A stretch of DNA of 64,000 bases from positions 14,032 to 78,031 of the forward strand of contig MGSS01000144.1 of the NCBI GenBank assembly GCA_001798595.1, given 5' to 3'. Made by a program: the position numbers and the translations under genes. Origin of the DNA: Deltaproteobacteria bacterium RIFCSPLOWO2_12_FULL_60_19 (GTDB lineage: Bacteria; Desulfobacterota; Binatia; UBA9968). This document shows, in pieces, positions 21,921-59,186 of the stretch (the stretch's first letter is position 1; each line of letters opens with the position of its first letter). The notes under the pieces were generated by a model. The model was not told the DNA's origin. It did no database searches and saw only the letters and a program-made list of their open reading frames with translations.

Positions 21921-22739
21921 TCAAGCCGCCAAAAATTCCGCGGTGAGTCGCTCAAACTCCAACGCCGCGTCCCACTGAGCGAGATGTTTGCAGCGGTCGA
22001 GCAGATGCAGGTTGAGAGTGGGGAATCGCTCCTTGAGAAGGGCGGCCCGCGCGGCTGCTGAGCCTCGGTCCTGTTTGCCGTAGAGCATAAGCAGCGGCAC
22101 CGGCAGCTGGTGCAGCCGCTCCCAGATCGGGACATTGTCTTTTCTGCCGCCGCTCCTCGGGGCCTTGGCCCGCTCTAAGAAAGCTTGAAAATTTTTGCCT
22201 ACGCTCATCCGGTGGCGTTTTTCGAAAACTTCGGCGGTGATCAGCGAGTGATTGAAGAGATTCTGCTCCAATAGCGCGCGGGTCTCCGCCGGAGTCGGCT
22301 CCGAGGCGCCTCCCTCTTCGCCCTCGCCGGGGCCGCCCTTGCCGCCTTCGGGCAGCGGCGGCAGCACGCTGCCGGTGGCGAGGACGACGACTTTGCCGAT
22401 CCGATCGGTGTGATCGAAGGCGAGGCCTACCGCCATGCCGCCGGCTTGCGAGTGGCCGACGAGATGCGCTTTGCGGATTCCTAGCGTATCCATAAACTGG
22501 AGGATGAAACGGCGCCGGTAAGCCACGGAATAGTCCTTCGGGTTGTCGGTCAGGCCGAATCCGGGCTGGTCGAAGGCGACGGCTCTGAGACGGTGGCTCG
22601 CAAGCGGGGCGAGATTGCGCTCCCAGACATCGGCGGAGGAGCCGAGCGACGCGCCGTGAAGCAGCAAGACTTCGGGGCCGCTTCCTTCTTCGAGGTAGCG
22701 TGTTTTCAACCCATCGACTTTAATAAGTCTCTCAGCCAT
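21921..22739 (-). CDS. Alpha/beta-hydrolase fold protein
   Basis: The GHSQAG nucleophile elbow and HGASLGSS oxyanion region are present. Confidence 0.75.
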   Translation of the reverse strand: MAERLIKVDGLKTRYLEEGSGPEVLLLHGASLGSSADVWERNLAPLASHRLRAVAFDQPGFGLTDNPKDYSVAYRRRFILQFMDTLGIRKAHLVGHSQAGGMAVGLAFDHTDRIGKVVVLATGSVLPPLPEGGKGGPGEGEEGGASEPTPAETRALLEQNLFNHSLITAEVFEKRHRMSVGKNFQAFLERAKAPRSGGRKDNVPIWERLHQLPVPLLMLYGKQDRGSAAARAALLKERFPTLNLHLLDRCKHLAQWDAALEFERLTAEFLAA

Positions 22740-27741: not shown

Positions 27742-28813
27742 CGTAGGGGGTCAGACATTTAATTATTTATTTTCTTCGTCTTGCGTTCCTCAGACCCTCT
27801 GTCAAATCCTCCACGCTTTGTCTCAAACCAGCTTCTTTCGTCATTCGCTCTCTCAATCCCTTTAGGCCCAGGCTCAGGGAGACTTGGTCTCGGCCATATC
27901 GCTTGGCCACATCACTAAGCTTTATCCCTCCCAGTTCCTGCCCCAGGTAGGCTACAACCATCCTGCCAAACGATCCGCGACGGTCCTTGCTCTTGGAGCG
28001 CAGGAGCTCGGGGGATAGCCCGTAGCGACCACACGCCGCTTCCTCGATGTCCGCAAGGTCGATTCGGATTGCCTGAGACGGTTCCTTTTCTATCCTACTA
28101 CTTACCCGCTCCACAAACTGCTCATCTCCCAAATACCGCTGCTCCTTAGTGGCGTAGAGATCCTCCCGATGTCCCTCAGATATGCCCTCCAATACAAATT
28201 CCTTGTATCTCCTTACCGCCTGCGAGCGCCTGGGTGAAAACTGGCTCAAAATCAAATCGGTCTCGATATCTACCTCAACCTTCAAGGGCTTACCCAAATA
28301 ACGACGGTGGCTGCTCCACGGATACTCTGATGGCTCCTTCACAAGCTTGGAGCGAACCGGATTCAAATGCAGATAGCGCACTAACTCCAGCAGATAGGAG
28401 TCCCGGTCGCAGAGAATCGCCTTGTAGCGGCCCTGAAAGAGGTGGCCCACCAGCCCGTATTTGCGGTTGAAATAGAGCGTGTAGCTCTGCTGCAGCCCCT
28501 GCATGACCTTGGCCAGCGGCGTCAGGCACGCTTCGACGAGCAAGTGAACGTGATTGGCCATTAACACGTAGGCGTACAGCCGAAAACGATACCGTTTCTG
28601 ATACCGGCTGAGCAACTCAAGGTAGCGGGCGCGGTCAAGATCGGAACGAAAGATCTTCTGGCGCTGATTGCCGCGAGCAATCACATGGTAGAGGCCGCCA
28701 GGGAAGTGGACTCGGGGCTTTCGTGCCATGGCTTGGGCCATACCACGAGGCAAGCGTACGATGCAAGAATTAAATAATTAAATGTCTGACCCCTACGATG
28801 TCTGACCCCTACG
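27742..28813. mobile_element. REPtron-like unit: a Y1 (HUH) transposase gene bracketed by ~27-bp inverted REP-like repeats starting GTAG, with a tandem 16-bp copy at the right end
   Basis: Left repeat CGTAGGGGGTCAGACATTTAATTATTTA (27742-27769). The right repeat (28771-28797) is its reverse complement with one G fewer. A second tandem ATGTCTGACCCCTACG copy lies at 28798-28813. Confidence 0.6.
27767..28753 (-). CDS. IS200-like/REP-associated tyrosine (Y1) transposase with C-terminal HTH extension
   Basis: HUH motif ANHVHLL, and catalytic Tyr region GRYKAILCDRDSYLLELVRYLHLNP. It is 328 aa and paralogous to 31822-32682. Confidence 0.8.
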   Translation of the reverse strand: MPRGMAQAMARKPRVHFPGGLYHVIARGNQRQKIFRSDLDRARYLELLSRYQKRYRFRLYAYVLMANHVHLLVEACLTPLAKVMQGLQQSYTLYFNRKYGLVGHLFQGRYKAILCDRDSYLLELVRYLHLNPVRSKLVKEPSEYPWSSHRRYLGKPLKVEVDIETDLILSQFSPRRSQAVRRYKEFVLEGISEGHREDLYATKEQRYLGDEQFVERVSSRIEKEPSQAIRIDLADIEEAACGRYGLSPELLRSKSKDRRGSFGRMVVAYLGQELGGIKLSDVAKRYGRDQVSLSLGLKGLRERMTKEAGLRQSVEDLTEGLRNARRRK

Positions 28814-31816: not shown

Positions 31817-32737
31817 AGGGGTCAGGTCTTGCTTCTTGTATCAGGCCTGTTTGCCAACCGGCTTACGGTAGCGTAGTGCAGGTCCAGAACATCCGCGACG
31901 TCACTCTGGCTGTACCCGTAACGATGCACCGCACGGACAACCAGGGCGTCTCGCCTGGCCTTGGTTAGCTTCCCTTCAAACAGGCTCTTGAGTGTCGGCC
32001 GGCTTAAGTATCTCTGGCTCCTAGGAATCTCTGTGACGGCCTCGTAACCTTTTACATACCCCCTGAGCCTCTCTACAAAGTCCTCTTCCCCCAACAATAC
32101 CTGGGCTTGCATCTTCTCCCAGATCGACGGCCGATCGATCCCTTCTCTGACAAATCGACGGTAGTGTCTAGCGGCCGAGTATCTTCTCTTACCAAACTGA
32201 CTCAACACCCAATCGACGGAGAGCCACGGGAGGTGCTTTTCCAGCCCTGCTGTAGCCCCGTAACTGCTCCACTTCCATTGCTCGACTCTCTTTACGGCCT
32301 TGGCCCTGACGGGGTTTAGCGCCACGTAGCGACAGACTTCCAAAAGGTGGCTGTCTTTTTGTATCAGCACGGCCTTGTAGCGGCCTTGAAACAGATGCCC
32401 TACCGTTCGGTGGCGTCGATTATAGAGTTGGGTGTAGACGCCGTTGAGCTGGCGCATCCCCTTGGAGAGATTAGCCTCCGGTGTTTCAATCACCAGGTGA
32501 TAGTGGTTATCCATCAGACAGTAGGCGTGGCAGAGCCAGTTAAAGCGGTTGACGACCTTGCCCAGGACCTCCAGGAAGGCTTTGCGGTCCCCATCGTCAT
32601 CGAAGATGTCCTCTCGGGCGTTGCCCCGGGAGGTCACATGGTAGACCGCACCGTCAAATTCCACTCGGAGAGGACGAGCCATGATTCACGGAACTATCAA
32701 GATAAGCCATCGATAGCAAGAAACAAGACCTGACCCC
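31817..32737. mobile_element. Second REPtron-like unit: Y1 transposase gene bracketed by 21-bp inverted repeats GGGGTCAGGTCTTG(C/T)TTCTTG
   Basis: The left repeat (31817-31837) and right repeat (32717-32737, reverse complement) have 1 mismatch. They share the GGGGTCAG core with the first unit. Confidence 0.55.
31822..32682 (-). CDS. IS200-like/REP-associated tyrosine (Y1) transposase paralogue
   Basis: HUH motif DNHYHLV and catalytic Tyr region GRYKAVLIQKDSHLLEVCRYVALNP. It is 286 aa. Confidence 0.8.
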   Translation of the reverse strand: MARPLRVEFDGAVYHVTSRGNAREDIFDDDGDRKAFLEVLGKVVNRFNWLCHAYCLMDNHYHLVIETPEANLSKGMRQLNGVYTQLYNRRHRTVGHLFQGRYKAVLIQKDSHLLEVCRYVALNPVRAKAVKRVEQWKWSSYGATAGLEKHLPWLSVDWVLSQFGKRRYSAARHYRRFVREGIDRPSIWEKMQAQVLLGEEDFVERLRGYVKGYEAVTEIPRSQRYLSRPTLKSLFEGKLTKARRDALVVRAVHRYGYSQSDVADVLDLHYATVSRLANRPDTRSKT

Positions 32738-32838: not shown

Positions 32839-34983
32839 CTACGGCAGCGTTGAGTTGTAGAGCTGCCCGTCATCAACGGCAGAGCTACCCGGTTTCATGC
32901 TCTTCGGCACACTCACCTCGACCGATCCGGCGCAGCTTCCGCCCTGGCCGTCGTCTGCCGTGAAGCCAACGCGATAGACCCGGCCGTTGCTATTGCCGGA
33001 GCGCTCCGCCCTGAGCAGCACGGTGCTTCCCTGGATTACTGCATCCGGGCTGGTGTCGCCGTCGCCCAGACCGTTCACCCGCTCATCCTGGGTTACGCCT
33101 GTTATGGTGATTGTCACGCCGTCATTGTTCGGATCGCTGACGCCTACGATCCCGACCGACACCAGCTTGTGGTTCGGCGGCCAGAGCCGCGATGGACTAG
33201 CCTGCGCAAGTTGGCAGATCGGAGGATCATTGACGTTCTGAACGGTAATGCTGACCCACTCATCGGGCTCGCCAGCCGCAGGATTGTTGCTCAACTGACC
33301 GTCGCTTACGCTAAGTTTAAACACCAGCGTATCCCCGCCGGGTCCCACCGGAGGCGCTGTGAAGCTAGGCGTCGCTGTGTCAGCCCCAGTTAGAGTCACC
33401 AGTGTCCCGCCGGTTTGTACCCAGCTGTATGTAATCGCATCCCCGTCCGGGTCGCTGCTGGCGGTACCATTCAGTGTCACCAGCGCCCCTTCGTCCTTCG
33501 TCTGGTCAGCACCGGCGTTAGCGACGGGCGCATGGTTTACCTGCTCGACGGTTACCTGGACCGTATCCGTGTCGAAGAGATAGCCGTCGGAGACAGTCAA
33601 CTCGAAGGTCAAAATCTCGAACCCGCCGACACCGCCGGGAATGAGCGGGGCCGTGAAGCTAGGCGTTGCAGTGTCGGGCCCAGTGAGAGTTACCAGCGTC
33701 CCGCCGGTTTGCACCCAGCTGTACGTGATAGCATCGAGATCCGGGTCGAAGCTGGCGCTGCCGTCGAGCATTACCGGCGCATCCTCGTTGACCGTTTGGT
33801 CACCGCCGGCATGCGCCTCCGGCGCGAGATTCACATTACCGACGGGGATTCCGTTCGCATCAGTCAGCACCCAGACGTCGTTCAGGGCGAAGAACTCAGC
33901 TCCAGAGCAACCGCCGCTGCAGCTGCGTCCTGCGAACATGACCATCCGGTTCGTCGCCGGGTTATAGACGGCGGTAGGGGAGCTTCGCCCGCGGGGTGGC
34001 CCGCCGGTGGGAAAAAGCTGCGTCCAATTTGGGGTACCTCCTAGTCCGTTGGCAACCTCAAGGACCCACACATCGTTAAGATTGCCCGCAACGTTTCGGT
34101 CGCCACCGAAGACCGTCATCCGGTTCGTCGCCTGGTCGTAAACCGCCGTGTGCATCGAGCGCGAGGGAGGGGGCCCACCGGTGGGGAAAAGCTGGGTCCA
34201 GGTGGGCGACCCCAATCCGTTGGCGTTCTGCAACACCCAGACATCGTCGGACGGACACGGCCCCCCGTCTACGCACCCCGAAAACACGATCATCCTGTTG
34301 TTTGTCGCATCATAGACCGCTATGTGTTCCGACCTTGCAGACGGCGGCCCGCCGGTGGGGAAAAGCTGGGTCCAGGTGGGCGACCCCAATCCGTTGGCGT
34401 TCTGCAACACCCAGACAGCGTTACTGTTGGCGCTGCAAGCGTTGCTCCTGCCGCCGAAGACGACCATGCGGTTCATAGCGGCATCGTAGACGGCCGTGGG
34501 TCCTTGACGAAGGTTGGGTGGCCCACCGGTGGGGCTGAGTTGCGACCAATTGGGCGTTCCGCCTGTCCCATCGGCGTTGGTAAGTACCCAGACATCATTG
34601 ACCGCACCAAAACAAGAACCAATGTTGGGATCTCCGGCAAACACAATCATGCGGTTGTTCACCACATCGTACACAGCACTATGGTAGCCCCGGGCACTTG
34701 GTGGCCCGCCAGTGGGGAAAAGCTGCGTCCAGGTGGGCGTCCCTCCCAATCCGTCGGCATTGGTCAGCACCCAGACATCGTTGAACAGAGGGTGCCCTGT
34801 AATCACTCCAGGGCCATTCATTCCCCCGAACACGATCATACGGTTATTGGTCGAGTTGAAGACCGCGGTATGGAGAACCCTTACGCCTGGTGGGCCGCCG
34901 ATCGGGCTAAGCTGCGTCCATGTCTGCGCCGCCGCCTGGCCGACCAGGGCGAAGACGAGAAGAAGGATTACCCCCCCCCCCAA
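32839..34983 (-). CDS. Secreted multi-domain protein: N-terminal Kelch-type beta-propeller (6-7 blades) plus two C-terminal PKD/Ig-like domains
   Basis: Repeated TW(T/S)QL..GGPP..R..H.AVYD...NRMIVFGG blades, then a duplicated D.DGD.ITYSWVQTGGTLVTLTG module. In the sequence as given, the TTG start sits inside a G11 tract. An in-frame ATG plus signal peptide is reached only with a G10 tract (see findings). Confidence 0.7.
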   Translation of the reverse strand: MGGGVILLLVFALVGQAAAQTWTQLSPIGGPPGVRVLHTAVFNSTNNRMIVFGGMNGPGVITGHPLFNDVWVLTNADGLGGTPTWTQLFPTGGPPSARGYHSAVYDVVNNRMIVFAGDPNIGSCFGAVNDVWVLTNADGTGGTPNWSQLSPTGGPPNLRQGPTAVYDAAMNRMVVFGGRSNACSANSNAVWVLQNANGLGSPTWTQLFPTGGPPSARSEHIAVYDATNNRMIVFSGCVDGGPCPSDDVWVLQNANGLGSPTWTQLFPTGGPPPSRSMHTAVYDQATNRMTVFGGDRNVAGNLNDVWVLEVANGLGGTPNWTQLFPTGGPPRGRSSPTAVYNPATNRMVMFAGRSCSGGCSGAEFFALNDVWVLTDANGIPVGNVNLAPEAHAGGDQTVNEDAPVMLDGSASFDPDLDAITYSWVQTGGTLVTLTGPDTATPSFTAPLIPGGVGGFEILTFELTVSDGYLFDTDTVQVTVEQVNHAPVANAGADQTKDEGALVTLNGTASSDPDGDAITYSWVQTGGTLVTLTGADTATPSFTAPPVGPGGDTLVFKLSVSDGQLSNNPAAGEPDEWVSITVQNVNDPPICQLAQASPSRLWPPNHKLVSVGIVGVSDPNNDGVTITITGVTQDERVNGLGDGDTSPDAVIQGSTVLLRAERSGNSNGRVYRVGFTADDGQGGSCAGSVEVSVPKSMKPGSSAVDDGQLYNSTLP
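34971..34981. repeat. Homopolymeric tract C11 (G11 on the coding strand) at the 5' end of the Kelch/PKD gene
   Basis: Direct reading: 11 consecutive C residues. Confidence 0.9.
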
Positions 34984-35049
34984 GTAACGGTTTGAACATT
35001 CGGCTTGTGTTTTTCATGACGCTGCTGTCCTTTCCGCCCATTTTAGGCA

Positions 35050-36162
35050 ATGGCAGATAACTATGAGGTGCCCCGCTCTAGCAGTGGGCAAAGAGGTTGT
35101 CAAGTTCTTAGTCGGGATTTTTTTCCTGGCTTGATCTGGCGGATTTTTGATGTTATCGGGAACGACGTGCGGATCGATATTGAATTCAATTCCGGCGCGC
35201 AACTCCCTATGGACGCGATTCCGGAGCTGGCGCGGTTGGCGGAAGAGCATGGCTTTGGCTGCGCGTGGGGCGGAGAGGCGAATAATAAAGATCCGACGGT
35301 GATGTTGTCGGCCATTGCCGCGGTCACCAGGCGCCTTCAGGTCGGATCGGCGGTCTATCACATTCTCGGCCGGACGCCGGCGACGCTGGCTTTGCAGGCA
35401 GCGGGGCTCGATGAATTGTCCGGCGGTCGATTTCTGCTCGGACTCGGCGTCTCGAATCCGACCATAGCCAGATGGCACGGCGTGCCGAACGATCATCCTC
35501 TCGGCCGCGTCAAAGAGTATCTCGATATCGTGCGACTGGCGATGAGCGGCGAGAAGCTCAATTTTGAGGGCAAATATTTCTCGTCGCAGGCGTTCAAGAT
35601 GGCCTTCAAGCCGTCGGGCAGGAAGGTTCCGATCTACCTCGCGGCCTTCGGCCCGAAGATGAGCCGGTTGGCGGGCGCGGCGACCGACGGCGTCATGATC
35701 AACATGGCCAATCCGGGAGAGATGCGCCGCATCGTGGAAGATGTCCGGCAGGGCGCCGATGAGGCCGGCAAAAACTTCAAGGAACTGGAAATCATCTGCA
35801 AGATACGCTGTTCCGTGGCGAAGGACTATGCCACCGCGCGCGAGGCGCTGAGCCACGCGCTGACTTACTATGCGCTGGCCGACTATTATCGTGTTCTTTT
35901 GACGCGGATGGGATTCGGCGCCGAGGTCGAGGCGATGCGCGCGGCGTGGCACTCCGGCGGCTTTCACGCGGCGAGGGCTCTGGTTTCGGACCGGCTGTTC
36001 GCCGGCCTGCCGCTGGTGCCCGCGACCTCCGTGGAAGAGATCAAGGAAAAGATCGAGCCGTATCGGGACGCCGGTGCGACGCGGATTATTCTCCCGTACG
36101 TGGCGTCGTCGGGAGAAACCGAGATGGTCGACGAGTTGAGAGAGTTTATCAACGCGTGGTGA
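35050..36162 (+). CDS. LLM-class (luciferase-like) flavin/F420-dependent oxidoreductase
   Basis: TIM-barrel LLM signatures (RIDIEFNSG...ELARLAEEHGFGCAWGGE...GLGVSNP). The start is uncertain; a GTG at 35167 is an alternative. Confidence 0.75.
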   Translation: MADNYEVPRSSSGQRGCQVLSRDFFPGLIWRIFDVIGNDVRIDIEFNSGAQLPMDAIPELARLAEEHGFGCAWGGEANNKDPTVMLSAIAAVTRRLQVGSAVYHILGRTPATLALQAAGLDELSGGRFLLGLGVSNPTIARWHGVPNDHPLGRVKEYLDIVRLAMSGEKLNFEGKYFSSQAFKMAFKPSGRKVPIYLAAFGPKMSRLAGAATDGVMINMANPGEMRRIVEDVRQGADEAGKNFKELEIICKIRCSVAKDYATAREALSHALTYYALADYYRVLLTRMGFGAEVEAMRAAWHSGGFHAARALVSDRLFAGLPLVPATSVEEIKEKIEPYRDAGATRIILPYVASSGETEMVDELREFINAW

Positions 36163-36190
36163 AGCAGCGGGTTGAATCGTGTACCGTGCC

Positions 36191-36267
36191 GTCATTCCGG
36201 CCAAGCTCGCGGTAGCGGGCGCGAGCCGGAACCCAGAAAGACTGGATTCCCGCTTTCGCGGGAAAGA
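36191..36267 (+). repeat. Structured ~80-nt intergenic repeat, copy A, ending in terminator-like hairpin TTCCCGC-tttc-GCGGGAA
   Basis: GTCATTCCGGCCAA...GAGCCGGAA(C/T)CCAG...CTGGATTCCCGCTTTCGCGGGA. Lies just downstream of the LLM gene stop. Confidence 0.6.
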
Positions 36268-36300
36268 CGCAAGGAGCAGAGCGTCAATTGAGAGGTTGCT

Positions 36301-36702
36301 ATGCCGTTTGAGTTGCTGAATCCGCAGGGATTGGAAAAACCGGTCGGTTATGCGCATGTCGCAAAGATCACGGGCGGGAAAATCGTTTACGTCGCTGGGC
36401 AGGCGCCGTTCGATGCCGATGGAGCGGTGGTGGGGAAGGGCGATTTTGCCCGCCAGTTTCGTCAGGTCATACACAATCTGAAGCTCGCGGTCGAGGGCGT
36501 GGGCGGGAGGCCGAATCAGTTTGCCGTGCTGACCATGTACTTGACCGACCTTCCGGCCTATCTTGCCGCCAAGAAAGAAATCGGCGCCGCCTATCGCGAA
36601 GTCTTCGGCAAATATTTCCCGGCGATCACGCTCGTCGAGGTCAAGAGCCTCTATCATGCGGACTGTATGGTCGAGATCTCGGGCGTCGCGGTAATTGACT
36701 AG
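36301..36702 (+). CDS. ridA: RidA/YjgF family reactive-intermediate deaminase
   Basis: 133 aa with a YjgF/chorismate-mutase-like fold pattern (GKIVYVAGQ...TMYLTDL...AITLVEV). Confidence 0.85.
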   Translation: MPFELLNPQGLEKPVGYAHVAKITGGKIVYVAGQAPFDADGAVVGKGDFARQFRQVIHNLKLAVEGVGGRPNQFAVLTMYLTDLPAYLAAKKEIGAAYREVFGKYFPAITLVEVKSLYHADCMVEISGVAVID

Positions 36703-36735
36703 CAGGCCGTTTCTAAATCCGTGAAATTTTTTGAA

Positions 36736-36825
36736 CGTCATTCCGGCCAACCCCCGCGATAGCGGGGGGCGAGCCGGAATCCAGGGAATTTCGGGAGTAC
36801 TGGATTCCCGCTTTCGCGGGAGTGA
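36736..36825 (+). repeat. Structured intergenic repeat, copy B, with the same terminal hairpin, immediately followed by the group II intron 5' end
   Basis: Shares the 14-nt 5' end, GAGCCGGAAyCCAG, and the 3' 24-nt hairpin with copy A. The central inner hairpin differs (CCCCCGC-gata-GCGGGGG). Confidence 0.6.
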
Positions 36826-38671
36826 GTGCGCCCGTGAAGGCGCCACATCAGCATGGTGAAAGTCCATGCCGGAGTATGCCACAGCTCCGTAGCCGAAGGT
36901 AACTGCGTCGCCCCTAGGCGAGGTGGGGAGCAACCGGAGGCGAACTGTCGGTCCGTAGGAGGACGAACTCGATTCGGCGGGGAGCTGCGACGAGCCTGCT
37001 CATTCATGGCGAAGTCCGAAAGTCGCTGGACACGCTGGCGTGGTGGGTGAAGCGATGTTCAGGCAGCCCACGTGGTTGGAGACGGAACGACGGGAAGGTG
37101 TGGTGCAGTAAGCGGGGAGACCTGCACGGTAGGTGAGCGGTGCAGGAGTCAGAGTCTCCATAGTACCGATGCGGGGCAACCTGCGAGAGGTGCGGGAAGC
37201 AAAACCGCGCTGAGGGAAGGGAGATAGGAAGGTGGAAGCGTGAGCGACACAACGGGGCAAAGCGAAAGCGAAGCGTCGGTAGTGCCCGAAGGGGCTACAC
37301 AAGGCGCAGAGACCCAGGGCCGAGATTGGTCGTGGGTGGAAGCCGAGGTGTGGAGCGAGCGCATGTTGGCGGCGCTGGAGAACGGCGTCAAAGGAGGCAA
37401 ATGGTTTAGCCTGATCGACAAGGTCTATCGTCCGGCAACGCTTGAGGCGGCGTGGCGCAAGGTAGCCGCGAACGCGGGAGCAGCCGGAGTAGACGGGCAA
37501 AGTGTTGAGCAGTTTGCGGCGCGAGCGGAAACGTATCTCGAAGAACTGGGAGAAGCGCTCAAGACGGGGAGCTACAAGCCGCTGGCCGTGCGGCGCGTGG
37601 AGATTCCGAAGGGGCAGGGAAAGCTGCGTCCCCTGGGGATTCCGGCGGTCAAAGACCGCATCGTGCAAACGGCGTTGAAGCTTGTGATCGAGCCGATCTT
37701 TGAGCGTGAGTTCCTGGACATGAGCTACGGTTTTCGTCCGGGTCGTGGCTGCAAAGACGCTTTGCGAGAAGTGGACCGGCTGCTCAGAGGAGGTTACACC
37801 CGCGTGGTGGACGCCGATCTTTCGAGCTACTTCGACACGATTCCTCACGCGCGTCTGATGGAGCGGGTGGGGGAGCGCGTGAGCGATGGCCGGTTGCTTC
37901 AGTTGATCGCAGCGTTTCTGCAACAAGACATCGTCAAGGGACTGGAGAGGTGGACGCCCGTAGGGGGCACGCCGCAAGGCGCGGTGATCAGCCCCTTGTT
38001 GGCGAACATCTACCTTCACTCGCTGGACTGTCATATGCGGGAACGCGGTTATCGGATGGTGCGCTACGCTGATGACTTCGTGGTGCTGTGCCGCAGCGCC
38101 GAACAGGCGCAAGCGGCACTTGCCGAGGTAAAAGCCTGGGTAGAAGCAAATGGCCTGAGTCTCAATGCCGACAAGACCCATGTGGGTGACTGCCGGGAAC
38201 CGGGCCAGGGCTTTGAATTTCTGGGCTATCGCTTCGAGGCGGGGCGGCGTTGGGTACGGCGCAAGAGCATCAGAGCGCTGCGTGACCGTATCCGGGCCAA
38301 GACCAGTCGCACACGGGGAGACAGTCTGCGTCATATGATTGCGGACTTGAACCCGCTGCTCAAGGGCTGGTTCGGCTACTTCAAGCATGCTCATCCGATG
38401 ACCTTTAGCGGGATGGACGGCTTTACTCGCAGACGGCTGAGGGCGGTCCTGCGCAAGCAGGAGAAACGCCCTGGCCTGGGTCGGTGTCTGGCCGATCATC
38501 TTAGGTGGTCCAAAGTTTTCTTTGCCGACTTGGGACTCTTCACCATGACGGAGGCCCATGCACTGGCAAGCCGATCCCGATGAGGAAACCACCGACTGGA
38601 GAGCCGTGTGCGGGAGAACCGCACGCACGGTTCGGAGGGCGGGGAGAGCGAAAGCTCTTCCCGACCCCTAT
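36826..38671 (+). mobile_element. Bacterial class C (IIC) group II intron, full length (~1.85 kb)
   Basis: 5' end GTGCGCC (36826). The IEP ORF sits in domain IV. Domain V GAGCCGTGTGCGGGAGAACCGCACGCACGGTTC (38603-38635). Domain VI has a bulged A (CCGACCCC). The 3' end is ...CTAT (38671). It is inserted directly after a hairpin, as IIC introns do. Confidence 0.75.
37240..38583 (+). CDS. Group II intron-encoded reverse transcriptase/maturase (no endonuclease domain)
   Basis: RT blocks including YADDFVV, plus an X/maturase domain. It is 447 aa and lacks an HNH/En C-terminus, consistent with class C. Confidence 0.9.
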   Translation: MSDTTGQSESEASVVPEGATQGAETQGRDWSWVEAEVWSERMLAALENGVKGGKWFSLIDKVYRPATLEAAWRKVAANAGAAGVDGQSVEQFAARAETYLEELGEALKTGSYKPLAVRRVEIPKGQGKLRPLGIPAVKDRIVQTALKLVIEPIFEREFLDMSYGFRPGRGCKDALREVDRLLRGGYTRVVDADLSSYFDTIPHARLMERVGERVSDGRLLQLIAAFLQQDIVKGLERWTPVGGTPQGAVISPLLANIYLHSLDCHMRERGYRMVRYADDFVVLCRSAEQAQAALAEVKAWVEANGLSLNADKTHVGDCREPGQGFEFLGYRFEAGRRWVRRKSIRALRDRIRAKTSRTRGDSLRHMIADLNPLLKGWFGYFKHAHPMTFSGMDGFTRRRLRAVLRKQEKRPGLGRCLADHLRWSKVFFADLGLFTMTEAHALASRSR

Positions 38672-50485: not shown

Positions 50486-51277
50486 ATGTATCCAGTTTTA
50501 TTCAGCATCGGCCCTTTGACGATCTACAGCTTCGGCACGCTCATGGCGCTGGCCGCGCTGTGCGCGGGTTGGATCGTCTGGCTTGAGTTGAAGCGCTACG
50601 GCTACGATCCGGAAATTTCTTCCACCATGGTTTTTGCCGCCGCCGTCGGCGGCCTGCTCGGCGCGAGGATTCTCTTCATTCTTGAGGAGTGGAGCAGTTT
50701 CATCCGCTCGCCGTTGGACTTTATTTTCAGCGGGGCGGGATTTACCTGGTACGGCGGGATGGCCGGGGCGGCGCTGGCGGTGACCTGGGTAGTGCGCCGT
50801 TACGGCATTCCGTGGCTCAAGGCCGCCGACATCTCGTCGCCCGCGGTCACGCTGGCTTACGGCATCGGCCGTATCGGCTGCCACATCGCCGGAGACGGCG
50901 ATTGGGGGACCGTCACCGATGTGCCCTGGGCGGTCGCCTACACCAACGCGATCATCGGTTGGGTGCATCCCTACACGGGGCTGCCGTACCCGCCAGGCGT
51001 GCGCGTCCATCCGACGCCGATTTATGAATTCCTCGAATCGCTGGCGATCTTCGGGATTCTGTGGCCGCTGCGCAAGAAGGGCTACGCCGACGGGAAGATT
51101 TTCTGGATCTACCTGATCCTCTCCGGCCTGGCTCGCTTCACCGTGGAATTCTGGCGCGTCAATCCTCCCCTCGCATCCGGGCTGAGCGAGGCGCAGTGGT
51201 TCAGTTTAGCCCTCATCGGGATCGGTTCGTATCTGCTTTACACGCGCGCGCAAAAAGGGACGGCCAGAGAGACGTAA
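50486..51277 (+). CDS. lgt: Prolipoprotein diacylglyceryl transferase
   Basis: Lgt signature G..R(I/L)GCH..GDG (YGIGRIGCHIAGDGDWG), 263 aa. Confidence 0.9.
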   Translation: MYPVLFSIGPLTIYSFGTLMALAALCAGWIVWLELKRYGYDPEISSTMVFAAAVGGLLGARILFILEEWSSFIRSPLDFIFSGAGFTWYGGMAGAALAVTWVVRRYGIPWLKAADISSPAVTLAYGIGRIGCHIAGDGDWGTVTDVPWAVAYTNAIIGWVHPYTGLPYPPGVRVHPTPIYEFLESLAIFGILWPLRKKGYADGKIFWIYLILSGLARFTVEFWRVNPPLASGLSEAQWFSLALIGIGSYLLYTRAQKGTARET

Positions 51278-51533
51278 GCGTTACTCGTGTTGACACTGAC
51301 CCCGGCTGTCCAACCCGACAACAGTTAAATAGAGATTGTACCTTACTGTGAACTTGAGATATGCCCCTTGAGAACTGAAAGGCATGGCGAGTGCTTCCCG
51401 GCCGGCTGGCCGGCAGGACCGGACCAACCGTTGAAGTATGCGTCAGTCTGCCTACGGGGCTGCGCGGGCAGGGAACCTTTTGGCTCAGAAGAAGTTTCGT
51501 TGTTAGTACGACTATCCGATACATGGAGAAAAT

Positions 51534-52040
51534 ATGACCCGAACAAAATCGTTAGTTGTCTTTTCCACTTTGGTCTTGGGCCTTTTGGGGGTTCATTTTG
51601 CCGACAAGATCGTCGCGGCGCAGGCTGAAAAAGACAAGGCCCCGGCCTTTACGCTTAAACTCTTGAACGGAGGAGATCTAAAATCCTCGGAGCTGGAAGG
51701 TAAAGTCACGGTTTTGAAGTTTGTCGCTTCCTGGTGACCGGAGTGCCGGCAGGAGGCTCCTGCCGTTGAAAGAGTGTACAAGAAATTCAAGGACAGAGGG
51801 GTTCAGTTCGTGGGGATCTTCGTTAAAGACAAAGATTCCGAGGTTCGGAAATTCGTAAAAACCCACGGCCTAACCTTCCCTGTGGGTCTCGACGATGAAA
51901 TGAAAATCGCTAACGCTTATAAATTTGTCGGCACGCCCTTTACGGTCATAGTCTCGAAAGCAGGGGAAGTCACTGACCGGAGAACCGGGCCTCAGAGCGA
52001 GAAGGCTCTGCGCGATAAAATAGAGAAGCTCCTAAAATAG
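51534..52040 (+). CDS. TlpA/ResA-like periplasmic thiol:disulfide oxidoreductase, candidate selenoprotein (UxxC) with in-frame TGA at 51735-51737
   Basis: The two listed ORFs (51534-51737 and 51774-52040) are in the same frame and are separated only by TGA. Read-through gives ...VTVLKFVASW-U-PECRQEAPAVERVYKKFKDRGVQFVGI..., a textbook TlpA thioredoxin fold in which the TGA occupies the first Cys of WCxxC. A signal peptide and the RBS GGAGA are present. Confidence 0.65.
51747..51765 (+). promoter_or_regulatory. Candidate bacterial SECIS hairpin 9 nt downstream of the in-frame UGA
   Basis: CGGCAGGA-ggc-TCCTGCCG, an 8-bp stem beginning 9 nt after the UGA. Confidence 0.4.
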
Positions 52041-52256
52041 GTTTCGTATGACCAGCGGTCAGACTTAGTCGCTCGGCCCTCGGTGCTTTACCGCGCCGTG
52101 CATCGCCGTTTCTCCGCTGATCACTCTCGCCCTGGCACACGGATCATCAAACGTACGCCACGAACCTTTACACTCCCTCCCTCTTGTAGATGAGACAAAC
52201 CGGACTACTTCCAAGCTATAACGGCCCATCGTTTCTGAAATGTTAGGAGGCGAAAA

Positions 52257-52592
52257 ATGACCGCAGTGAGGATCACTCATTCACTATTGCTGTTTCTCAT
52301 AGCTGGTTTGTGTGAGATCGGAGGAGGATGGCTCGTGTGGCAATGGCTGCGAGAGGGACGGGGCAGCCTTTGGGGGCTCGCAGGCGGGCTGTTGTTGATT
52401 TTTTACGGGATCATTCCGACTTTTCAGCCGGTGCATTTCGGCCGCGTTTATGCGGCTTACGGCGGTTTTTTTATCTTCCTATCGTTATGTTGGGGTTGGA
52501 TGTTCGATGGAAACGTTCCGGACCGTCCTGAAATCGTTGGAGGTACGTTGAGCTTGGCCGGAGTCTTTATCATTATGTATTGGCCGAGATAA
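52257..52592 (+). CDS. ynfA: YnfA/UPF0060 family small membrane protein
   Basis: 111 aa, 4 TM, with the family-typical GGGWLVWQW motif. Confidence 0.8.
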   Translation: MTAVRITHSLLLFLIAGLCEIGGGWLVWQWLREGRGSLWGLAGGLLLIFYGIIPTFQPVHFGRVYAAYGGFFIFLSLCWGWMFDGNVPDRPEIVGGTLSLAGVFIIMYWPR

Positions 52593-53206
52593 TGACACCA
52601 TACAAAAAAGCTCTCCTTTCAGAATATTTCACCGTCGGTTGGAATATTATCGAGGGGATCGTCGCCATCGCCGCTGGCGTCATTGCCGGATCGATAGCGC
52701 TGGTGGGATTTGGCCTGGACAGCTCTATTGAAGTAGCCTCCGGCTTAGTCTTGATCTGGCGGCTTCGCAAGCACGGATTCAGCGACGAAGAGGAAGAAGA
52801 GGCCGCCGAGAAAAGAGCCATATTATTTGTTGGCGTTACCTTTTTTCTTTTGTCGGCTTACGTGGTTTACGAGTCCGGAAAGAAACTCATCTACCACGAG
52901 CACCCCGAGGAAAGTCTCGTCGGAATTATTTTAGCGGTTGTCTCTCTGGTCGTGATGCCTATCTTGGCTTGGTATAAAAAGAAGCTAGCCTTGGAAATTC
53001 ATAGCCGCGCTTTGAGAGCCGATGCGCTAGAGACCCTGGCCTGTTCCTATCTTTCGCTGACTCTACTGCTAGGTCTTGGCGCTAATGCGCTCTTCGGTTG
53101 GTGGTGGGCCGATCCGGTGTCCGCCCTAGCTATGGTCTATTTTCTTATCAAGGAGGGAACGGAGGCGATCCGCGAAGGATGGAAAGGCCTAACGCAAAAA
53201 GCCTGA
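52580..53206 (+). CDS. Cation-diffusion-facilitator (CDF) family transporter, membrane domain only
   Basis: 208 aa, 6 TM, with TM2/TM5 metal-site residues (H/D pattern). It lacks the usual C-terminal cytoplasmic domain. Confidence 0.65.
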   Translation: MAEIMTPYKKALLSEYFTVGWNIIEGIVAIAAGVIAGSIALVGFGLDSSIEVASGLVLIWRLRKHGFSDEEEEEAAEKRAILFVGVTFFLLSAYVVYESGKKLIYHEHPEESLVGIILAVVSLVVMPILAWYKKKLALEIHSRALRADALETLACSYLSLTLLLGLGANALFGWWWADPVSALAMVYFLIKEGTEAIREGWKGLTQKA

Positions 53207-54523: not shown

Positions 54524-55963
54524 TTACGTTGAATGAAGGGGTTTGATGGAGAGTTTGTCCTCGGTGAAGCAAAGCAGAGATTTTTTGCCGTTGATCTCGG
54601 TCTCAAGCGCCACCTCCCGCCCCCACAACTGATGGAGATACTGGAGCGTTTTGTCCGCATATTCCAGCTGCAAGTCCCTGCCGTCGTGGGCATGCTTTAG
54701 GAACAGCGCGCGATTGTTGTTATAGTCCGCGTTATCGATCTGAATCGTCGGGACCGTTCCCATGCCGACGTTGCGTATCAGGGTTTCTTTGATCGCCTGC
54801 CAGTTCTCGTCGTCCGCCACGCGGCTTACGACGCGGTCGCCGCCGCGGCTCTGGTGCTCGAACAGGTTGAGCTCCCGAACCAGCTCCTCGGTGAGATAAC
54901 GGCGCAGGAAAGAGACGTCCCGCTCGACTTCCCGCGCCTCGAAGAGCTTGGCCCGGCCCGATTTTGTTTTCGGGCCGGACTGTTTTTCTTCCTCCGGCGT
55001 CGGATGATCCCAGCGCCGCTCGATGGCCTCCCAGACCTTCATGCCCAGATGGTATGGATTCAGCGAGTTGGCGGCCGGGCTTAAGACCTGGTTGTGGCGG
55101 ACCATGAATTCCAGGTGCATGCCTTGAGGGAGTTTCAAGGCCTCGACGATGCGCTTATGCCAGTAGCTCGCCCAGCCCTCATTCATGATTTTCGTCTCGA
55201 TCTGCGGGATGAAGTATTGCGCCTCTTCGTGGACGATCGTGAGAAGGTCTTTTTCCCAATCGCTCAACTGCGGGTTGTGGTCGCGGATAAAGAGCAAAAT
55301 GTCCGCTTCCGGATAGAGCGGCACGCGGTTCAAATCGGGCGGCGCGTAGTCCGGGCGGCGGTGGATCGTCTGGAAAGGGTCCGCCGCCGGCCTGGAGTCC
55401 GCCAGCCGTTGATCGATCTGTTCGTCGGGCGTCTGTTTGCGGACCGCCAGGTTGCGCCGGCATTGGAGCGAAAGGGCATGCGCTGCGTCGAGCAGCCGCT
55501 CCACTTTTTCCCGCCCGATGCTGGGGTCTTCGACGTATTTCCGCACCCGATCCGCGTGGGCCTTGAAAGTTTCTATGGTAAATTCCGCGCGGCCGGACCT
55601 GAAGGTGAAATTATTTTTGAAAAAGTCGTTGTGCCCATACACGTGGGCGATGGTCAGCACCTGGAGGAGGAGCGTGTTGTCCCGCATCAAATAGGCGATG
55701 GACGGATCGGAGTTGATCACCATCTCGTAGGGCAAGCCGCTCATGCCGTAATCGTAGAGCGTTTTGAGCTTCTCGTAGCTCTTGCCGTAAGACCAGTGCG
55801 GGTAGTGGGACGGCATGCCGGAATAGACCATGTAGCCGAGCATCTGCTCGTGGTCGCAGATCTCGAATTCCTGGGGGTAGGGGTCGAGGCCGAACTGGCG
55901 CGCCAGGATGAGAATACGCTCGTTCCAGGCTTCCAACTCGGCCACGGTGTATGCGGCAGCCAT
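54524..55963 (-). CDS. SpoVR/YcgB family protein
   Basis: 479 aa SpoVR-like. It is the third gene of the prkA operon. Confidence 0.85.
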   Translation of the reverse strand: MAAAYTVAELEAWNERILILARQFGLDPYPQEFEICDHEQMLGYMVYSGMPSHYPHWSYGKSYEKLKTLYDYGMSGLPYEMVINSDPSIAYLMRDNTLLLQVLTIAHVYGHNDFFKNNFTFRSGRAEFTIETFKAHADRVRKYVEDPSIGREKVERLLDAAHALSLQCRRNLAVRKQTPDEQIDQRLADSRPAADPFQTIHRRPDYAPPDLNRVPLYPEADILLFIRDHNPQLSDWEKDLLTIVHEEAQYFIPQIETKIMNEGWASYWHKRIVEALKLPQGMHLEFMVRHNQVLSPAANSLNPYHLGMKVWEAIERRWDHPTPEEEKQSGPKTKSGRAKLFEAREVERDVSFLRRYLTEELVRELNLFEHQSRGGDRVVSRVADDENWQAIKETLIRNVGMGTVPTIQIDNADYNNNRALFLKHAHDGRDLQLEYADKTLQYLHQLWGREVALETEINGKKSLLCFTEDKLSIKPLHST

Positions 55964-55975
55964 GGCGCGCGCGGC

Positions 55976-57151
55976 TCAAGCCGCCTCTTCGCGGGCGCGG
56001 TCCCGCGCGAGGAAGGTCCTGAAGCAGGGCCAGATGTCTTCTTTGCGCTGGATCTGGACGGTTTGAAAGTTGTCGGCCTGGAGCTGGGAGAAAAATTGGA
56101 TCATGCTGCTGCCGTAGTAGCCGGCGCCGAGGGGCTTGATCTCGCCGTAGCCGAAAAGGTTGGCAACCTCGGTCAATTCTTTGGCGGCCTGGAGGGCGGC
56201 CGGATTGTCGGAGTCGAAGTTGTCTCCGTCGGAGCAATGAAACACGTAAACGTTCCACAGCGTCGGATGGTAGCGCTGGTCGATGATCTCCAACGCCTTG
56301 CGGTAGCCGGAGGAGATGAAGGTGCCGCCGGACTCTCCCTTGTGGAAGAATTCCTCTTCGCTAACTTGGCGGGCTTCGGTGTGGTGGGCGATGAAGACGA
56401 TCTCGACGTTCTGGTATTTGGCGCAGAGGAAGCGGTAGAGGAGGAAGAAAAAGCTCCGCGCCAGATATTTCTTCATGGTGTCCATCGAGCCCGAAGTGTC
56501 CATGACGCATAGCACGACGGCGTTGGATTCGCGCCGCATCTCCGTCACCGTATGGCGGTAGGTGAGGTCGTCGTTGTGGAACGGGAATCGCTGAGCGGCG
56601 GCCGCTCCGCCGGTCTTTTCGCTCGCTTTCTTGCGCTTGATCCGCGCGATAGCCGTGCGGCGCTTGTCGAGGTGAACCCGAACCCCTTTCCTCCGATAGC
56701 CCTTTCTGCGGTAGAGCTGTTGGACTTCCGTCTCGCGCAGGTGCTTGCGCTCGAGATCGGGGAGCTCGAGGTCCTCAAACATCATATCGATCAGCTCTTC
56801 GAGGGAGATATCGGTTTCATAGTAGTCCACGCCGGGCCGGTCGCCCGCCGGATCGCCCTGGCCGGGTCCCTTTCCTTGACCGACGACCTGCCCCGGCTGC
56901 GTATTTTCTCCGCCCTGGCCGACGCCCGGCGAGTTTTCGCCGTAAACGAAGCGGTACTCTTTCACACCGCGAATCGGAACCTTGACGATGCGGTTGCGGT
57001 CTTTGCCGATGATCGACTCTTCGGCGATGATGTCGGCGATGTTATGCCGGATGGCTTCGTGAACTTTTTGGCGATGGCGCAGCCGGTCCCCGGCGGAGCG
57101 GTCGCTGCGCTGGACGGAAGAGGGATCGTAGGAGCGGAAGATGGTCTCCAT
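55976..57151 (-). CDS. yeaH: YeaH/YhbH (DUF444, vWA-like) protein
   Basis: 391 aa DUF444, between prkA and spoVR. Confidence 0.85.
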   Translation of the reverse strand: METIFRSYDPSSVQRSDRSAGDRLRHRQKVHEAIRHNIADIIAEESIIGKDRNRIVKVPIRGVKEYRFVYGENSPGVGQGGENTQPGQVVGQGKGPGQGDPAGDRPGVDYYETDISLEELIDMMFEDLELPDLERKHLRETEVQQLYRRKGYRRKGVRVHLDKRRTAIARIKRKKASEKTGGAAAAQRFPFHNDDLTYRHTVTEMRRESNAVVLCVMDTSGSMDTMKKYLARSFFFLLYRFLCAKYQNVEIVFIAHHTEARQVSEEEFFHKGESGGTFISSGYRKALEIIDQRYHPTLWNVYVFHCSDGDNFDSDNPAALQAAKELTEVANLFGYGEIKPLGAGYYGSSMIQFFSQLQADNFQTVQIQRKEDIWPCFRTFLARDRAREEAA

Positions 57152-57224
57152 CTCCGTTAGGGGTTAGGCGTAAGGGGTGAGGGGATCGCCTGACCTTTCA
57201 CCCCTCACGCCTTACGGGCGTCGA

Positions 57225-59186
57225 TTAGTCCTTCCACAAATTGTTGGCTGCGTACTTTAAGACCACGTCCACGCAACTCGCGCAGTAGCCGTGATCGAGC
57301 AGGTTCTTGACCATCGCGTTGTATTTCTCGCTCTGCTCCTCGTCGCGCGTCCTGGCTTTGGTAATCACGCGGCTCAAGTCCCGCACCGAAGTCATCAGTT
57401 TTTTCTCGATCGCTTCCGTGAGCGGCTCGTAACTTCGGTAGTCGATCTTTTCCCCTCTGCGGTTGGCCGCCCACAGGTAGGCGATCACCTCCTGGCGGAA
57501 ACCGTCGGCGGCGGAGCCGATGATGGCGATCTGCTCCTCGATGGATTTCATAAAACCTTCGTCCGGCGACAGCTCTTCCTTGGTGTTGCGGTCCTTGACC
57601 TTGCTCTTGTTGACGTAAGCCTCGGCGTGGTCGAGGTAGTTTTGGAACAGCGATTCGGCCTGCTCGCGGTACGAATAGACAAACGCGCGAGTAATCTCCT
57701 TCTCCAAAATCTCCAGGTACTCTTTGTGCAACGTGTCCTGGAGAAATTCCAGATACTGCTTGCGCATGTCGTCGGGCAGGTCGGCCTCCTTGACCATATT
57801 GATCAACGCCTCGCGGACGTTGATCGGATTGATGCAGTTGCCCGCGGTGTTGTCCGACAGGGCGTTGTCCAGCGCCTTCATGATAAACCGGGTCGATATC
57901 CCGCTCATGCCCTCGCGCTTGGCCGACTCGCGCAGCTCCTGCACGTCAACTTTTTTCGTCCGCCCCTTCTCCACAACCTCTTCGCCGTTGTAAAGCTTGA
58001 GCTTGGTCATGAGGTCGCACTTGTTGGTGGGCTCGAGGCGGGAGAGGACGGCGAACATAGAGACGATATCGAGGGTGTGCGGCGACACGTGGGCGTGGAA
58101 GTCGGAGTGGCGGATGATCTTCTGGTAGATCTTGACCTCCTCCGAGAGGCGAAGGTTGTAGGGGACTTTGATGACGACGATACGGTCCAGAATCGCCTCG
58201 TTGGTATGATCGGCCTTGAACTTCTGCCACTCGGCTTCGTTCGAGTGGGCCACGATGACGGTGTCGACGTAGACCAAGCCGTGCCTTCCGGGGGCCGGGA
58301 TCACCTTCTCCTGCGTCGCGGTGATCATGCAGTGGAGATACTCGATCTCGTTTTTGAAGACCTCGATAAATTCGACCACGCCGCGGTTGCCGACGTTGAG
58401 CGCGCCGTTCAGCTCCAGGACGCGCGGATCGCCTTCGGAATAGAGGTCGAGCTTGGAGATGTCTTCGCTGCCGATCAGGACCGAGGTGTCCTGGTTGTTG
58501 GGGTCCACCGGCGGCACCACGCCGATCCCGACGCGCGTCCGCTTGGAAAACTCTACGGCGCAGACGGGGAACTCTTCATAGCGGCCGTTGAACTCCGCCT
58601 TCAGCCGGTAGCGGCAGACCGGGCAGAGGTCGCCTTCGATGTGAACTCCCAACATCTTTTCGAATTCTTTGCGCAGATGGCGGGGAATCAGGTGGAGCGG
58701 CTCTTCGAACATCGGGCAGCCCTCGATCGCATAGAGGGGTAGGCTCTCTTCGAGGCCGCGATGGAGTTTTTCAATCAGCGAGCTTTTGCCGGAGCCGACG
58801 GGGCCCATCAGGTAGAGCACCTGGCGGCTCTCTTCGCCTTTCATGGACGCGGCGTGAAAGTAGCGAACGATTTGCGCGATGGTCTTTTCGATGCCGAAGA
58901 ATTCGTCGGCGAAGAAATGGTGGACCTTGAGGTTCTCGTCCTTGTAGAGACGTTTGATCCTGGGGTCGTCCGTGTCGTGAATGTCGCGGACGCCCGGCTT
59001 CATCACGATGTCGTAGATGCGCGCATGGGCCAGCTTGGTCATCGAGGGAGTCTCTTTGACCTTGTCGAGATAGCCCAGCAGGTTTCCTTTCCAGGCCCTG
59101 ACCTGGCTTTGGTCACGATCTTTGCGGATCAGAGACTCAAAGTCCTTGTGTTCGTTCATTCCAACGGCACCTCCTTTCGGAGTCAA
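57225..59186 (-). CDS. prkA: PrkA/YeaG serine protein kinase (AAA+ N-domain)
   Basis: Walker A GPVGSGKSS and a PrkA C-terminal domain; 653 aa. Confidence 0.9.
   Translation of the reverse strand: MTPKGGAVGMNEHKDFESLIRKDRDQSQVRAWKGNLLGYLDKVKETPSMTKLAHARIYDIVMKPGVRDIHDTDDPRIKRLYKDENLKVHHFFADEFFGIEKTIAQIVRYFHAASMKGEESRQVLYLMGPVGSGKSSLIEKLHRGLEESLPLYAIEGCPMFEEPLHLIPRHLRKEFEKMLGVHIEGDLCPVCRYRLKAEFNGRYEEFPVCAVEFSKRTRVGIGVVPPVDPNNQDTSVLIGSEDISKLDLYSEGDPRVLELNGALNVGNRGVVEFIEVFKNEIEYLHCMITATQEKVIPAPGRHGLVYVDTVIVAHSNEAEWQKFKADHTNEAILDRIVVIKVPYNLRLSEEVKIYQKIIRHSDFHAHVSPHTLDIVSMFAVLSRLEPTNKCDLMTKLKLYNGEEVVEKGRTKKVDVQELRESAKREGMSGISTRFIMKALDNALSDNTAGNCINPINVREALINMVKEADLPDDMRKQYLEFLQDTLHKEYLEILEKEITRAFVYSYREQAESLFQNYLDHAEAYVNKSKVKDRNTKEELSPDEGFMKSIEEQIAIIGSAADGFRQEVIAYLWAANRRGEKIDYRSYEPLTEAIEKKLMTSVRDLSRVITKARTRDEEQSEKYNAMVKNLLDHGYCASCVDVVLKYAANNLWKD

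Follow-up and report, generated by a model that had tools for sequence, protein, structure and literature searches.

A gene for a probable ResA/TlpA-type selenoprotein, with an in-frame TGA at its active site, from a Binatia-like bacterium

A 64,000-nucleotide (nt) stretch of contig MGSS01000144.1 (positions 14,032 to 78,031 of the contig; hereafter the window), from assembly GCA_001798595.1 of Deltaproteobacteria bacterium RIFCSPLOWO2_12_FULL_60_19, harbors a gene that public databases present in two pieces. Positions 51534-52040 of the window very probably form a single gene for a putatively exported thiol:disulfide oxidoreductase of the ResA/TlpA type, in which an in-frame UGA is decoded as selenocysteine (Sec) at the active site. 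The evidence comes from the invariance of the TGA codon among orthologues, the equal selection on either side of it, its alignment with the catalytic Cys of homologues and a conserved hairpin directly downstream that resembles a bacterial Sec insertion sequence (SECIS).

A preliminary description of the window had proposed that two same-frame open reading frames (ORFs), separated only by a TGA, encode a complete TlpA/ResA thioredoxin fold on read-through, with the TGA at the first, nucleophilic position of a W-U-P-E-C active site, and that standard gene callers would overlook such a gene. Each of these points is borne out by the analyses described below.

One reading frame across a conserved TGA

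The reading frame that begins with the ATG at 51534 and ends with the TAG at 52038-52040 is broken by the TGA at 51735-51737 alone, and read-through yields a product of 168 amino acids (aa). A Shine-Dalgarno-like site precedes the start codon (Table 1), and in orthologues the in-frame sequence upstream of the start ('GGN/GEN-M') shows that GGAGG or GGAGA is kept at the Shine-Dalgarno position. A promoter and terminator scan of 51200-52350 returned no signal beyond shuffle expectation. By inspection, a positively charged n-region at the N-terminus is followed by ~15 hydrophobic residues and by an xQA motif that orthologues retain, features that would be consistent with a signal peptide or membrane anchor.

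None of the available annotations presents the gene as one selenoprotein. GenBank splits it into OGQ78465.1 (67 aa) and OGQ78466.1 (88 aa), each labeled 'hypothetical protein'; the gene calls of ENA give halves of 67 aa and 76 aa; and the Logan annotation likewise has two ORFs. The JGI collection contains full-length orthologues (P0001, P0002, P0003 and P0006) that carry W at the Sec position. Both contigs underlying P0001 and P0002 were read (loci L062 and L063), and in each the codon for this W is TGA. The 'WWPEC' or 'YWPEC' active site of the JGI proteins is a false Trp in public protein sets.

The fused protein matches several Pfam families in stretches that run unbroken over the TGA: AhpC-TSA (PF00578) at 97.5 bits in a single stretch (gathering threshold 26), Redoxin (PF08534) at 93.9 bits (gathering threshold 26.6) and Thioredoxin_8 at 51.9 bits. 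Thioredoxin_2 (PF13098) is matched more weakly, at 31.6 bits. Among solved structures, Bacillus subtilis ResA is the closest (E = 3e-22), with 131 residues aligned without gaps, and this alignment places the TGA on the first Cys of the ResA WCEPC motif; the corresponding motif of the fused protein reads W-U-P-E-C. In a 45-sequence alignment of homologues (A4), C71, E74, P116, P135 and G144 are invariant, and position 68 is Cys throughout except in three TGA-carrying proteins. P135 lies in the segment G-T-P-F-T and aligns with the Pro of ResA P-L-P-T-T; we take it to be the cis-proline of the thioredoxin fold.

Structural modeling of an orthologue agrees with this placement. An AlphaFold2 (AF2) model was made of P0001, which is 74% identical to the window protein. 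Its predicted local distance difference test (pLDDT) score reaches 95 or more between about residue 41 and residue 168 and is low (53-56) at residues 1-30. The best PDB match of the model is ResA (1st9), with a template modeling (TM) score of 0.94 and a root-mean-square deviation of 1.3 Å. Helix alpha-1 of the model comprises residues 69-85 and begins directly after the Sec position, so that U68-P-E-C71 is predicted to lie just before the helix, at the place where ResA/TlpA/DsbE-type enzymes carry CxxC. A strand, the active site and a helix of the ResA-like domain cross the TGA junction, and neither half is a domain alone.

The protein scores below the NCBIfam cutoffs for ResA (NF002854, 111.5 versus 170), TlpA (NF047696, 43.6 versus 230) and DsbE (TIGR00385, 55.4 versus 123). 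By analogy with these enzymes, it would work like ResA, TlpA or DsbE, but it is the equivalog of none of them. The name peroxiredoxin, under which JGI lists P0001 and P0003, was considered and rejected. The PxxxTxxC/U motif is absent from the sequence K-F-V-A-S-W-U-P-E-C, which has neither Thr/Ser at U minus 3 nor Pro at U minus 7, and the nearest solved relatives are ResA, StoA and DsbE, not peroxiredoxins (Prx).

A metagenome scan returned 49 related loci, 46 of which cover the TGA site; the two JGI contigs L062 and L063 were added, for a total of 48. Besides the window, TGA occupies the Sec codon in all 46 covering loci and in both added contigs (48/48), at protein identities of 45-83%. The ratio of nonsynonymous to synonymous substitution rates (dN/dS; Nei-Gojobori, 946 sequence pairs) has the same value, 0.226, upstream and downstream of the TGA; purifying selection acts equally on the two halves. 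The gene is byte-identical, TGA included, in two independent ENA assemblies (L056 and L057), so neither sequencing nor assembly error explains the TGA.

The more distant relatives supply the Cys counterpart of this position. CxxC is present in all 53 full-length homologues in which the local motif is matched, and its first Cys falls on the TGA position. As the preliminary description had anticipated, U aligns with the catalytic Cys of TlpA-type homologues as well as with the first Cys of ResA. A HMMER search of 1.84 billion cluster representatives with P0001 as the query found no full-length homologue above 44% identity. The sole matches above 50% identity among these representatives are C-terminal fragments, which implies that the orthologue group is split everywhere. 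A scan of a genome collection for orthologues gave six matches, all of them distant Cys-type relatives. To judge from these sequences, the TGA form appears to be the only one in which the orthologue group occurs.

A conserved hairpin downstream of the TGA

The stable hairpin that had been noticed 9 nt after the TGA is real in sequence and position. Its arms, CGGCAGGA (51747-51754) and TCCTGCCG (51758-51765), form a perfect 8-bp stem around the loop ggc; the free energy is -13.1 kcal/mol. With the closing pair taken as open, the apical loop reads A-GGC-U. The + strand of the window contains 15 perfect 8-bp hairpins with loops of 3-9 nt, and the chance of finding one at a ~20-nt position is ~0.5%. 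No further copies of the hairpin were found in the window, and none after a TGA in viral contigs.

The legend to Fig. 2 of a 2026 review gives a consensus for bacterial SECIS elements (bSECIS) (PMC13188914). The model specifies a loop of 3-9 nt, an upper stem of 4-16 bp, a UGA-to-loop distance of 16-37 nt, a G in the first two loop positions and a minimum free energy (MFE) of at most -7.5 kcal/mol; a common form of the loop is N1-G-[G/U]-N-N2, in which N1 and N2 are paired (PMC13188914, Fig. 2 legend). The window hairpin lies within all of these bounds, with a 3-nt loop (GGC), an 8-bp stem, a UGA-to-loop distance of 17 nt and the free energy given above. The loop contains the expected G either as GGC or as A-GGC-U, the latter fitting N1-G-[G|U]-N-N2.

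Conservation at the nucleotide level argues for a role of this element in RNA. Codons +4 to +8 after the TGA (CGG or CAG, CAG, GAG, GCT, CCT) have zero synonymous variants in 44 unique sequences, compared with a mean codon entropy of 0.9-1.0 bit at the other conserved and degenerate codons of the gene. Of all 7-codon stretches in the gene, the one at +2 to +9 has the lowest entropy. The synonymous substitution rate (dS) is 0.40 at codons +1 to +10, versus 1.03 and 1.11 in the flanks. The hairpin is kept in every orthologue; across 34 distinct sequences, 98.5% of the cells are paired, versus 32-72% in slid controls. The second pair from the base of the stem (G51748:C51764 in the window) is AU in 17 sequences, GU in 15, GC in 14 and GG in 1, and A-C never occurs; wherever CGG is changed to CAG (Arg to Gln), the partner Ala codon is GCT. 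These patterns indicate that the hairpin region is under RNA-level constraint. The preliminary description had suggested a bSECIS test of this region, and the outcome is favorable: the hairpin agrees with the published model, synonymous conservation extends over 44 orthologues and one pair alternates among G-C, G-U and A-U.

Selenium use and rival readings of the UGA

The window contains a second link to selenium. The senA/senB-like pair noticed earlier was confirmed, both genes scoring above their family cutoffs (Table 1). senA and senB are selenoneine biosynthesis genes. The selenoneine pathway consumes selenophosphate, and the genome is therefore expected, on this indirect evidence, to make selenophosphate. 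No senC/selD-type selenophosphate synthetase adjoins the pair, whose neighbors are an AmpG-like major facilitator superfamily (MFS) transporter (18062-19345) and an alpha/beta hydrolase (21921-22739). The organism probably uses selenium for a small molecule as well as in a protein.

Several observations weigh against a Sec-encoding gene or temper the case for it. Neither selA, selB, selD nor tRNA-Sec (selC) was found in the window or in the 10 kb beyond each end, using Pfam scans of ~60 window ORFs, ARAGORN, Rfam and 10-kb end extensions taken from other assemblies; this absence is uninformative because ~84 kb were examined of a genome of several Mb. No second selenoprotein candidate occurs in the window, where the other same-frame ORF pairs parted by TGA are ordinary adjacent genes, and the literature searched contained no report of Sec use in Binatia and nothing relevant on this genome. 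The 71-nt hairpin region folds no better than shuffled sequences (z = -0.33), so the weight of the hairpin rests on conservation and not on thermodynamics. That conservation is itself narrow in one respect. Six of the eight stem pairs never vary, the covariation hangs on one pair, and the shuffle control for covariation (5/500) is a value attainable by related sequences without structure. Rfam gave no SECIS match in a gathering-threshold scan of the window or in a scan of 51500-52100 at E <= 10, which returned two chance-level hits and is uninformative. Export or membrane anchoring of the U68 protein, finally, is suggested only by inspection of its N-terminus.

Among the same-frame ORF pairs is a 639-aa ORF without a Pfam match (35014-36933, - strand), which shares its frame with a 714-aa Kelch/PKD-repeat ORF (32839-34983), a TGA lying between them. 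The pair (32839-36933) looks like two adjacent genes and not like recoding.

The sole surviving rival accepts recoding and disputes the residue. It holds that UGA is recoded, through a SECIS/SelB-type route or by near-cognate decoding, but that the inserted residue is Cys or Trp: Cys from a tRNA(Sec)-like tRNA, or Trp or Cys from near-cognate tRNAs in a leaky UGA-C context. For some uncultured bacteria, insertion of Cys at UGA in a SelB-dependent manner has been proposed. Such an explanation would sit easily with the Sec biosynthesis genes not being found in the 84 kb examined, and the sequence evidence demonstrates UGA recoding and an RNA signal, not the chemical identity of the residue. It is nonetheless improbable in either variant. 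The hairpin fits the SelB-type SECIS consensus in every constraint (PMC13188914), and the site is the CxxC nucleophile, the classical position of Sec/Cys exchange (PMC1088965, PMC1794560). Trp at position 68 would destroy the active site, and a need for Cys alone could be served by TGC or TGT, yet all 48 loci have TGA. The presence of senA and senB in the genome further indicates that selenium is handled.

The remaining rivals dispute recoding itself, and each is contradicted by direct tests and scarcely credible. According to one, the gene is a pseudogene, a Cys-type TlpA gene inactivated by a nonsense mutation, or the TGA is an error of sequencing or assembly. Gene callers do yield two ORFs, but 48 independent loci, drawn from many samples, all have TGA at this codon, two further assemblies contain an identical sequence, dN/dS is ~0.23 on either side and most orthologues have no other disruption of the frame; the chance that this explanation holds is very slight.

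A second, equally remote, takes the two ORFs called by GenBank, ENA and Logan at face value, as small genes translated separately, one giving an exported peptide of 67 aa and the other a C-terminal protein of 88 aa (or 76 aa). Downstream of the TGA, codons that could serve as starts first occur at +10 and +13, past the second active-site Cys, and only 52% and 70% of the sequences, respectively, have a start-capable codon there. The choice of start differs by pipeline (88 aa versus 76 aa), and the halves jointly form one ResA-like domain that Pfam matches span without a break. The genuine two-gene split that the preliminary description had named as a refutation accordingly fails, given a TGA in 48/48 loci, poorly kept downstream starts and halves of which neither is its own domain.

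Just as implausible is TGA as a sense codon (genetic code 4 or 25), the reading implied by the Trp in JGI P0001-P0003 and P0006 (TGA being confirmed for P0001 and P0002): among the long ORFs of the window, which have full-length Pfam matches, TGA is the commonest stop and terminates 22 of the 46 with a length of 200 aa or more; ten orthologues use TGA as the terminal stop of the selenoprotein gene as well; and WWPEC has no nucleophile.

With Sec as the preferred residue, a working mechanism can be outlined whose insertion steps are taken from the established bacterial pathway. The hairpin at 51747-51765 would act as the SECIS during translation and recruit SelB-GTP with Sec-tRNA(Sec), and this complex would decode the UGA at 51735-51737 as Sec instead of stop. 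The N-terminal hydrophobic segment would then export or anchor the protein, leaving the thioredoxin-fold domain outside the cytoplasmic membrane. By analogy with ResA/TlpA, the U68 selenolate might attack a substrate disulfide, C71 might resolve the resulting selenenylsulfide, and a CcdA/DsbD-type membrane electron shuttle might re-reduce the enzyme. Sec insertion, export, the redox partner and the disulfide substrate are all proposals in this outline, and the steps after UGA decoding are modeled on ResA/TlpA. Neither cytochrome-c maturation genes (resB, resC) nor ccdA/dsbD were seen near the gene.

Neighboring genes and known relatives

The gene directly downstream of the selenoprotein gene is ynfA, and the two are possibly co-transcribed (Table 1). 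Of 31 orthologue loci with enough sequence, 21 have ynfA as the next gene downstream on the same strand, with gaps of 17-113 nt between the selenoprotein gene and ynfA, and another 3 loci have it directly upstream. A short cation-diffusion-facilitator (CDF) gene overlaps the end of ynfA in the window. CDF genes of two kinds recur near the orthologues, as do a small His-rich ORF and genes for an S-adenosylmethionine (SAM)-dependent methyltransferase and for an efflux protein of the outer membrane. This recurrence suggests a conserved TlpA(U)-YnfA-CDF module (loci L013-L047), and the neighbors hint, loosely, at metal handling or metallo-enzyme maturation in the envelope.

Table 1. Positions of the selenoprotein gene, its elements and selected genes in the 64,000-nt window
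Feature	Position	Strand	Basis or remark
GGAG, Shine-Dalgarno-like site	51525..51528	+	read from sequence; 5 nt before ATG
ResA/TlpA-like thiol:disulfide oxidoreductase, predicted selenoprotein coding sequence	51534..52040	+	168 codons, Sec at codon 68, TAG stop 52038-52040
Signal peptide or membrane anchor, putative	51534..51626	+	MTRTK, hydrophobic core, AAQA before EKDK; sequence inspection
In-frame TGA, probably read as selenocysteine U68	51735..51737	+	codon kept in orthologues; aligned with first Cys of WCxxC
Active-site motif U-P-E-C (UxxC), predicted	51735..51746	+	homologue alignment
Bacterial SECIS-type hairpin, candidate	51747..51765	+	8-bp stem CGGCAGGA/TCCTGCCG, apical loop GGC
Conserved Pro codon (P135, G-T-P-F-T)	51936..51938	+	invariant in A4; aligned with Pro of ResA P-L-P-T-T
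ynfA (UPF0060/YnfA)	52257..52592	+	NCBIfam NF002586, 129 bits versus cutoff 114
Short cation-diffusion-facilitator (CDF) gene	52580..53206	+	Pfam Cation_efflux, 75.7 bits; overlaps ynfA end
senB	19299-20279	-	TIGR04348, 405 bits versus cutoff 300
senA	20276-21667	-	NF041186, 511 bits versus cutoff 420

Some loci depart from this arrangement. In L048, L050 and L051 (e.g., L051 2521-4114) the order is ynfA, TlpA(U), CDF. The proteins of these three loci share 76-93% (YnfA) and 86-94% (CDF) identity with those of the window, but TlpA(U) only ~49%; the TGA and identical hairpin nucleotides are retained. A subfamily of paralogues, or a module that was rearranged in a close relative, may account for this arrangement. 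In 13 loci (L033 299-1048, L026 1404-2036 and others) a class I SAM-dependent methyltransferase gene (Methyltransf_11/UbiE-like) lies directly upstream on the same strand; its product scores under all NCBIfam equivalog cutoffs, and the window has lgt at this position. In L013 (553-2908; 137.7-kb contig Ga0105252_10000027), the selenoprotein gene is immediately preceded by a DUF420 gene and two genes for cytochrome c oxidase subunit III, a context that recalls, by analogy, the role of TlpA in oxidase maturation.

Elsewhere in the window, a group II intron occupies 36907-38671 (+), with Rfam matches to D1-D4 and domain V/VI and a reverse-transcriptase/maturase ORF at 37240-38583. Two - strand ORFs (27767-28753 and 31822-32682) have an IS200-type Y1 transposase domain, the first of them also matching the DnaA C-terminal helix-turn-helix, and between them lie solute-binding-protein genes and an ornithine cyclodeaminase-like gene. 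A PrkA-DUF444 (YeaH-like)-SpoVR triad is found at 54524-59186 (-). DnaX of this genome is nearest to proteins of 'Candidatus Binatia bacterium', at 60-66% identity, and the 'Deltaproteobacteria' label of the source metagenome-assembled genome (MAG), which stems from Rifle groundwater, is probably outdated.

A broader proposal is speculative, and the odds are against it. It describes a Sec-only ResA/TlpA-like subfamily limited to Binatia-like soil and groundwater bacteria, forming a module with YnfA and CDF transporters (often with the SAM-dependent methyltransferase) and acting as an envelope selenoenzyme in the handling of metal(loid)s or the maturation of metallo-enzymes instead of in classical cytochrome-c maturation; with it, decoding of UGA as Sec would be documented in Binatia for the first time.

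The more immediate consequences concern annotation. OGQ78465.1, OGQ78466.1 and dozens of metagenome fragments are halves of one enzyme, and a well-supported selenoprotein is added to an uncultured Binatia-like lineage. The invariant SECIS, with one covarying pair over 48 loci, offers a clean training or test case for selenoprotein finders.

Thioredoxin-fold UxxC selenoproteins, a class known since 2004-2005, are the commonest predicted kind in bacteria. That they form an established class, as the preliminary description had stated, is confirmed by the families tabulated in the review and by two earlier studies (PMC13188914, Table 1; PMC1088965; PMC1794560). Table 1 of the review lists four relevant families, among them a 'Prx-like thiol:disulfide oxidoreductase' (PF00578, UxxC/UxxU), a 'Thiol-disulfide isomerase-like protein' (TlpA-like cd02966, UxxC) and a 'UGC-containing TlpA' (PMC13188914). 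The Prx-like and thiol-disulfide isomerase-like families date from 2004-2006 (PMC1088965, PMC1794560), and the 'Prx-like protein' was described as having distant homology to Prx, yet a thioredoxin-like UxxC motif (PMC1088965).

The Prx-like selenoprotein family and the window protein have in common PF00578 as the best Pfam match and Sec in place of the first Cys of CxxC. Placed by domain and motif description, the window protein would belong to this family as defined (PF00578 with UxxC, not TxxU). The genomes that carry the window group are Binatia-like and derive from soil and groundwater, not from Geobacter or marine samples, and unlike that family the group has its own invariant U-P-E-C-[RQ]-Q-E-A-P motif and SECIS. 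The TlpA/DsbE-like UxxC selenoproteins likewise have the thioredoxin fold and UxxC, and PF13098 and the DsbE, ResA and TlpA models match the window protein partially; the difference lies in PF13098, which is weaker than PF00578 and PF08534 in the window protein.

The ResA-like WAxxUGC selenoprotein (NF041054) resembles the window protein in that a ResA/TlpA-like domain carries Sec. Membership in NF041054 was rejected, the score being 39.3 bits versus a cutoff of 300, with WAxxUGC in a 354-position model as opposed to ASWUPEC in 168 aa.

Among Cys-containing enzymes, the closest comparison is B. subtilis ResA (PDB 1st9/1su9), a thiol-disulfide oxidoreductase of cytochrome-c maturation with ~32-34% identity to the window protein. 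The two share the WCxxC position, the presumed cis-Pro and an N-terminal hydrophobic segment. A Glu three residues past the second Cys is also common to both, as E80 in ResA (altered in the 'E80Q' variant, PDB 2h1b) and as the invariant E74 in the window protein. Unlike ResA, the window protein would have Sec for Cys74, and its intervening dipeptide is P-E where that of ResA is E-P. Set beside these systems, the gene is an unannotated addition to established selenoprotein families that leaves knowledge of their mechanism unchanged; what is mildly new is the Binatia-like lineage, the apparent lack of a Cys-type orthologue, the invariant SECIS and the pairing with ynfA and CDF genes.

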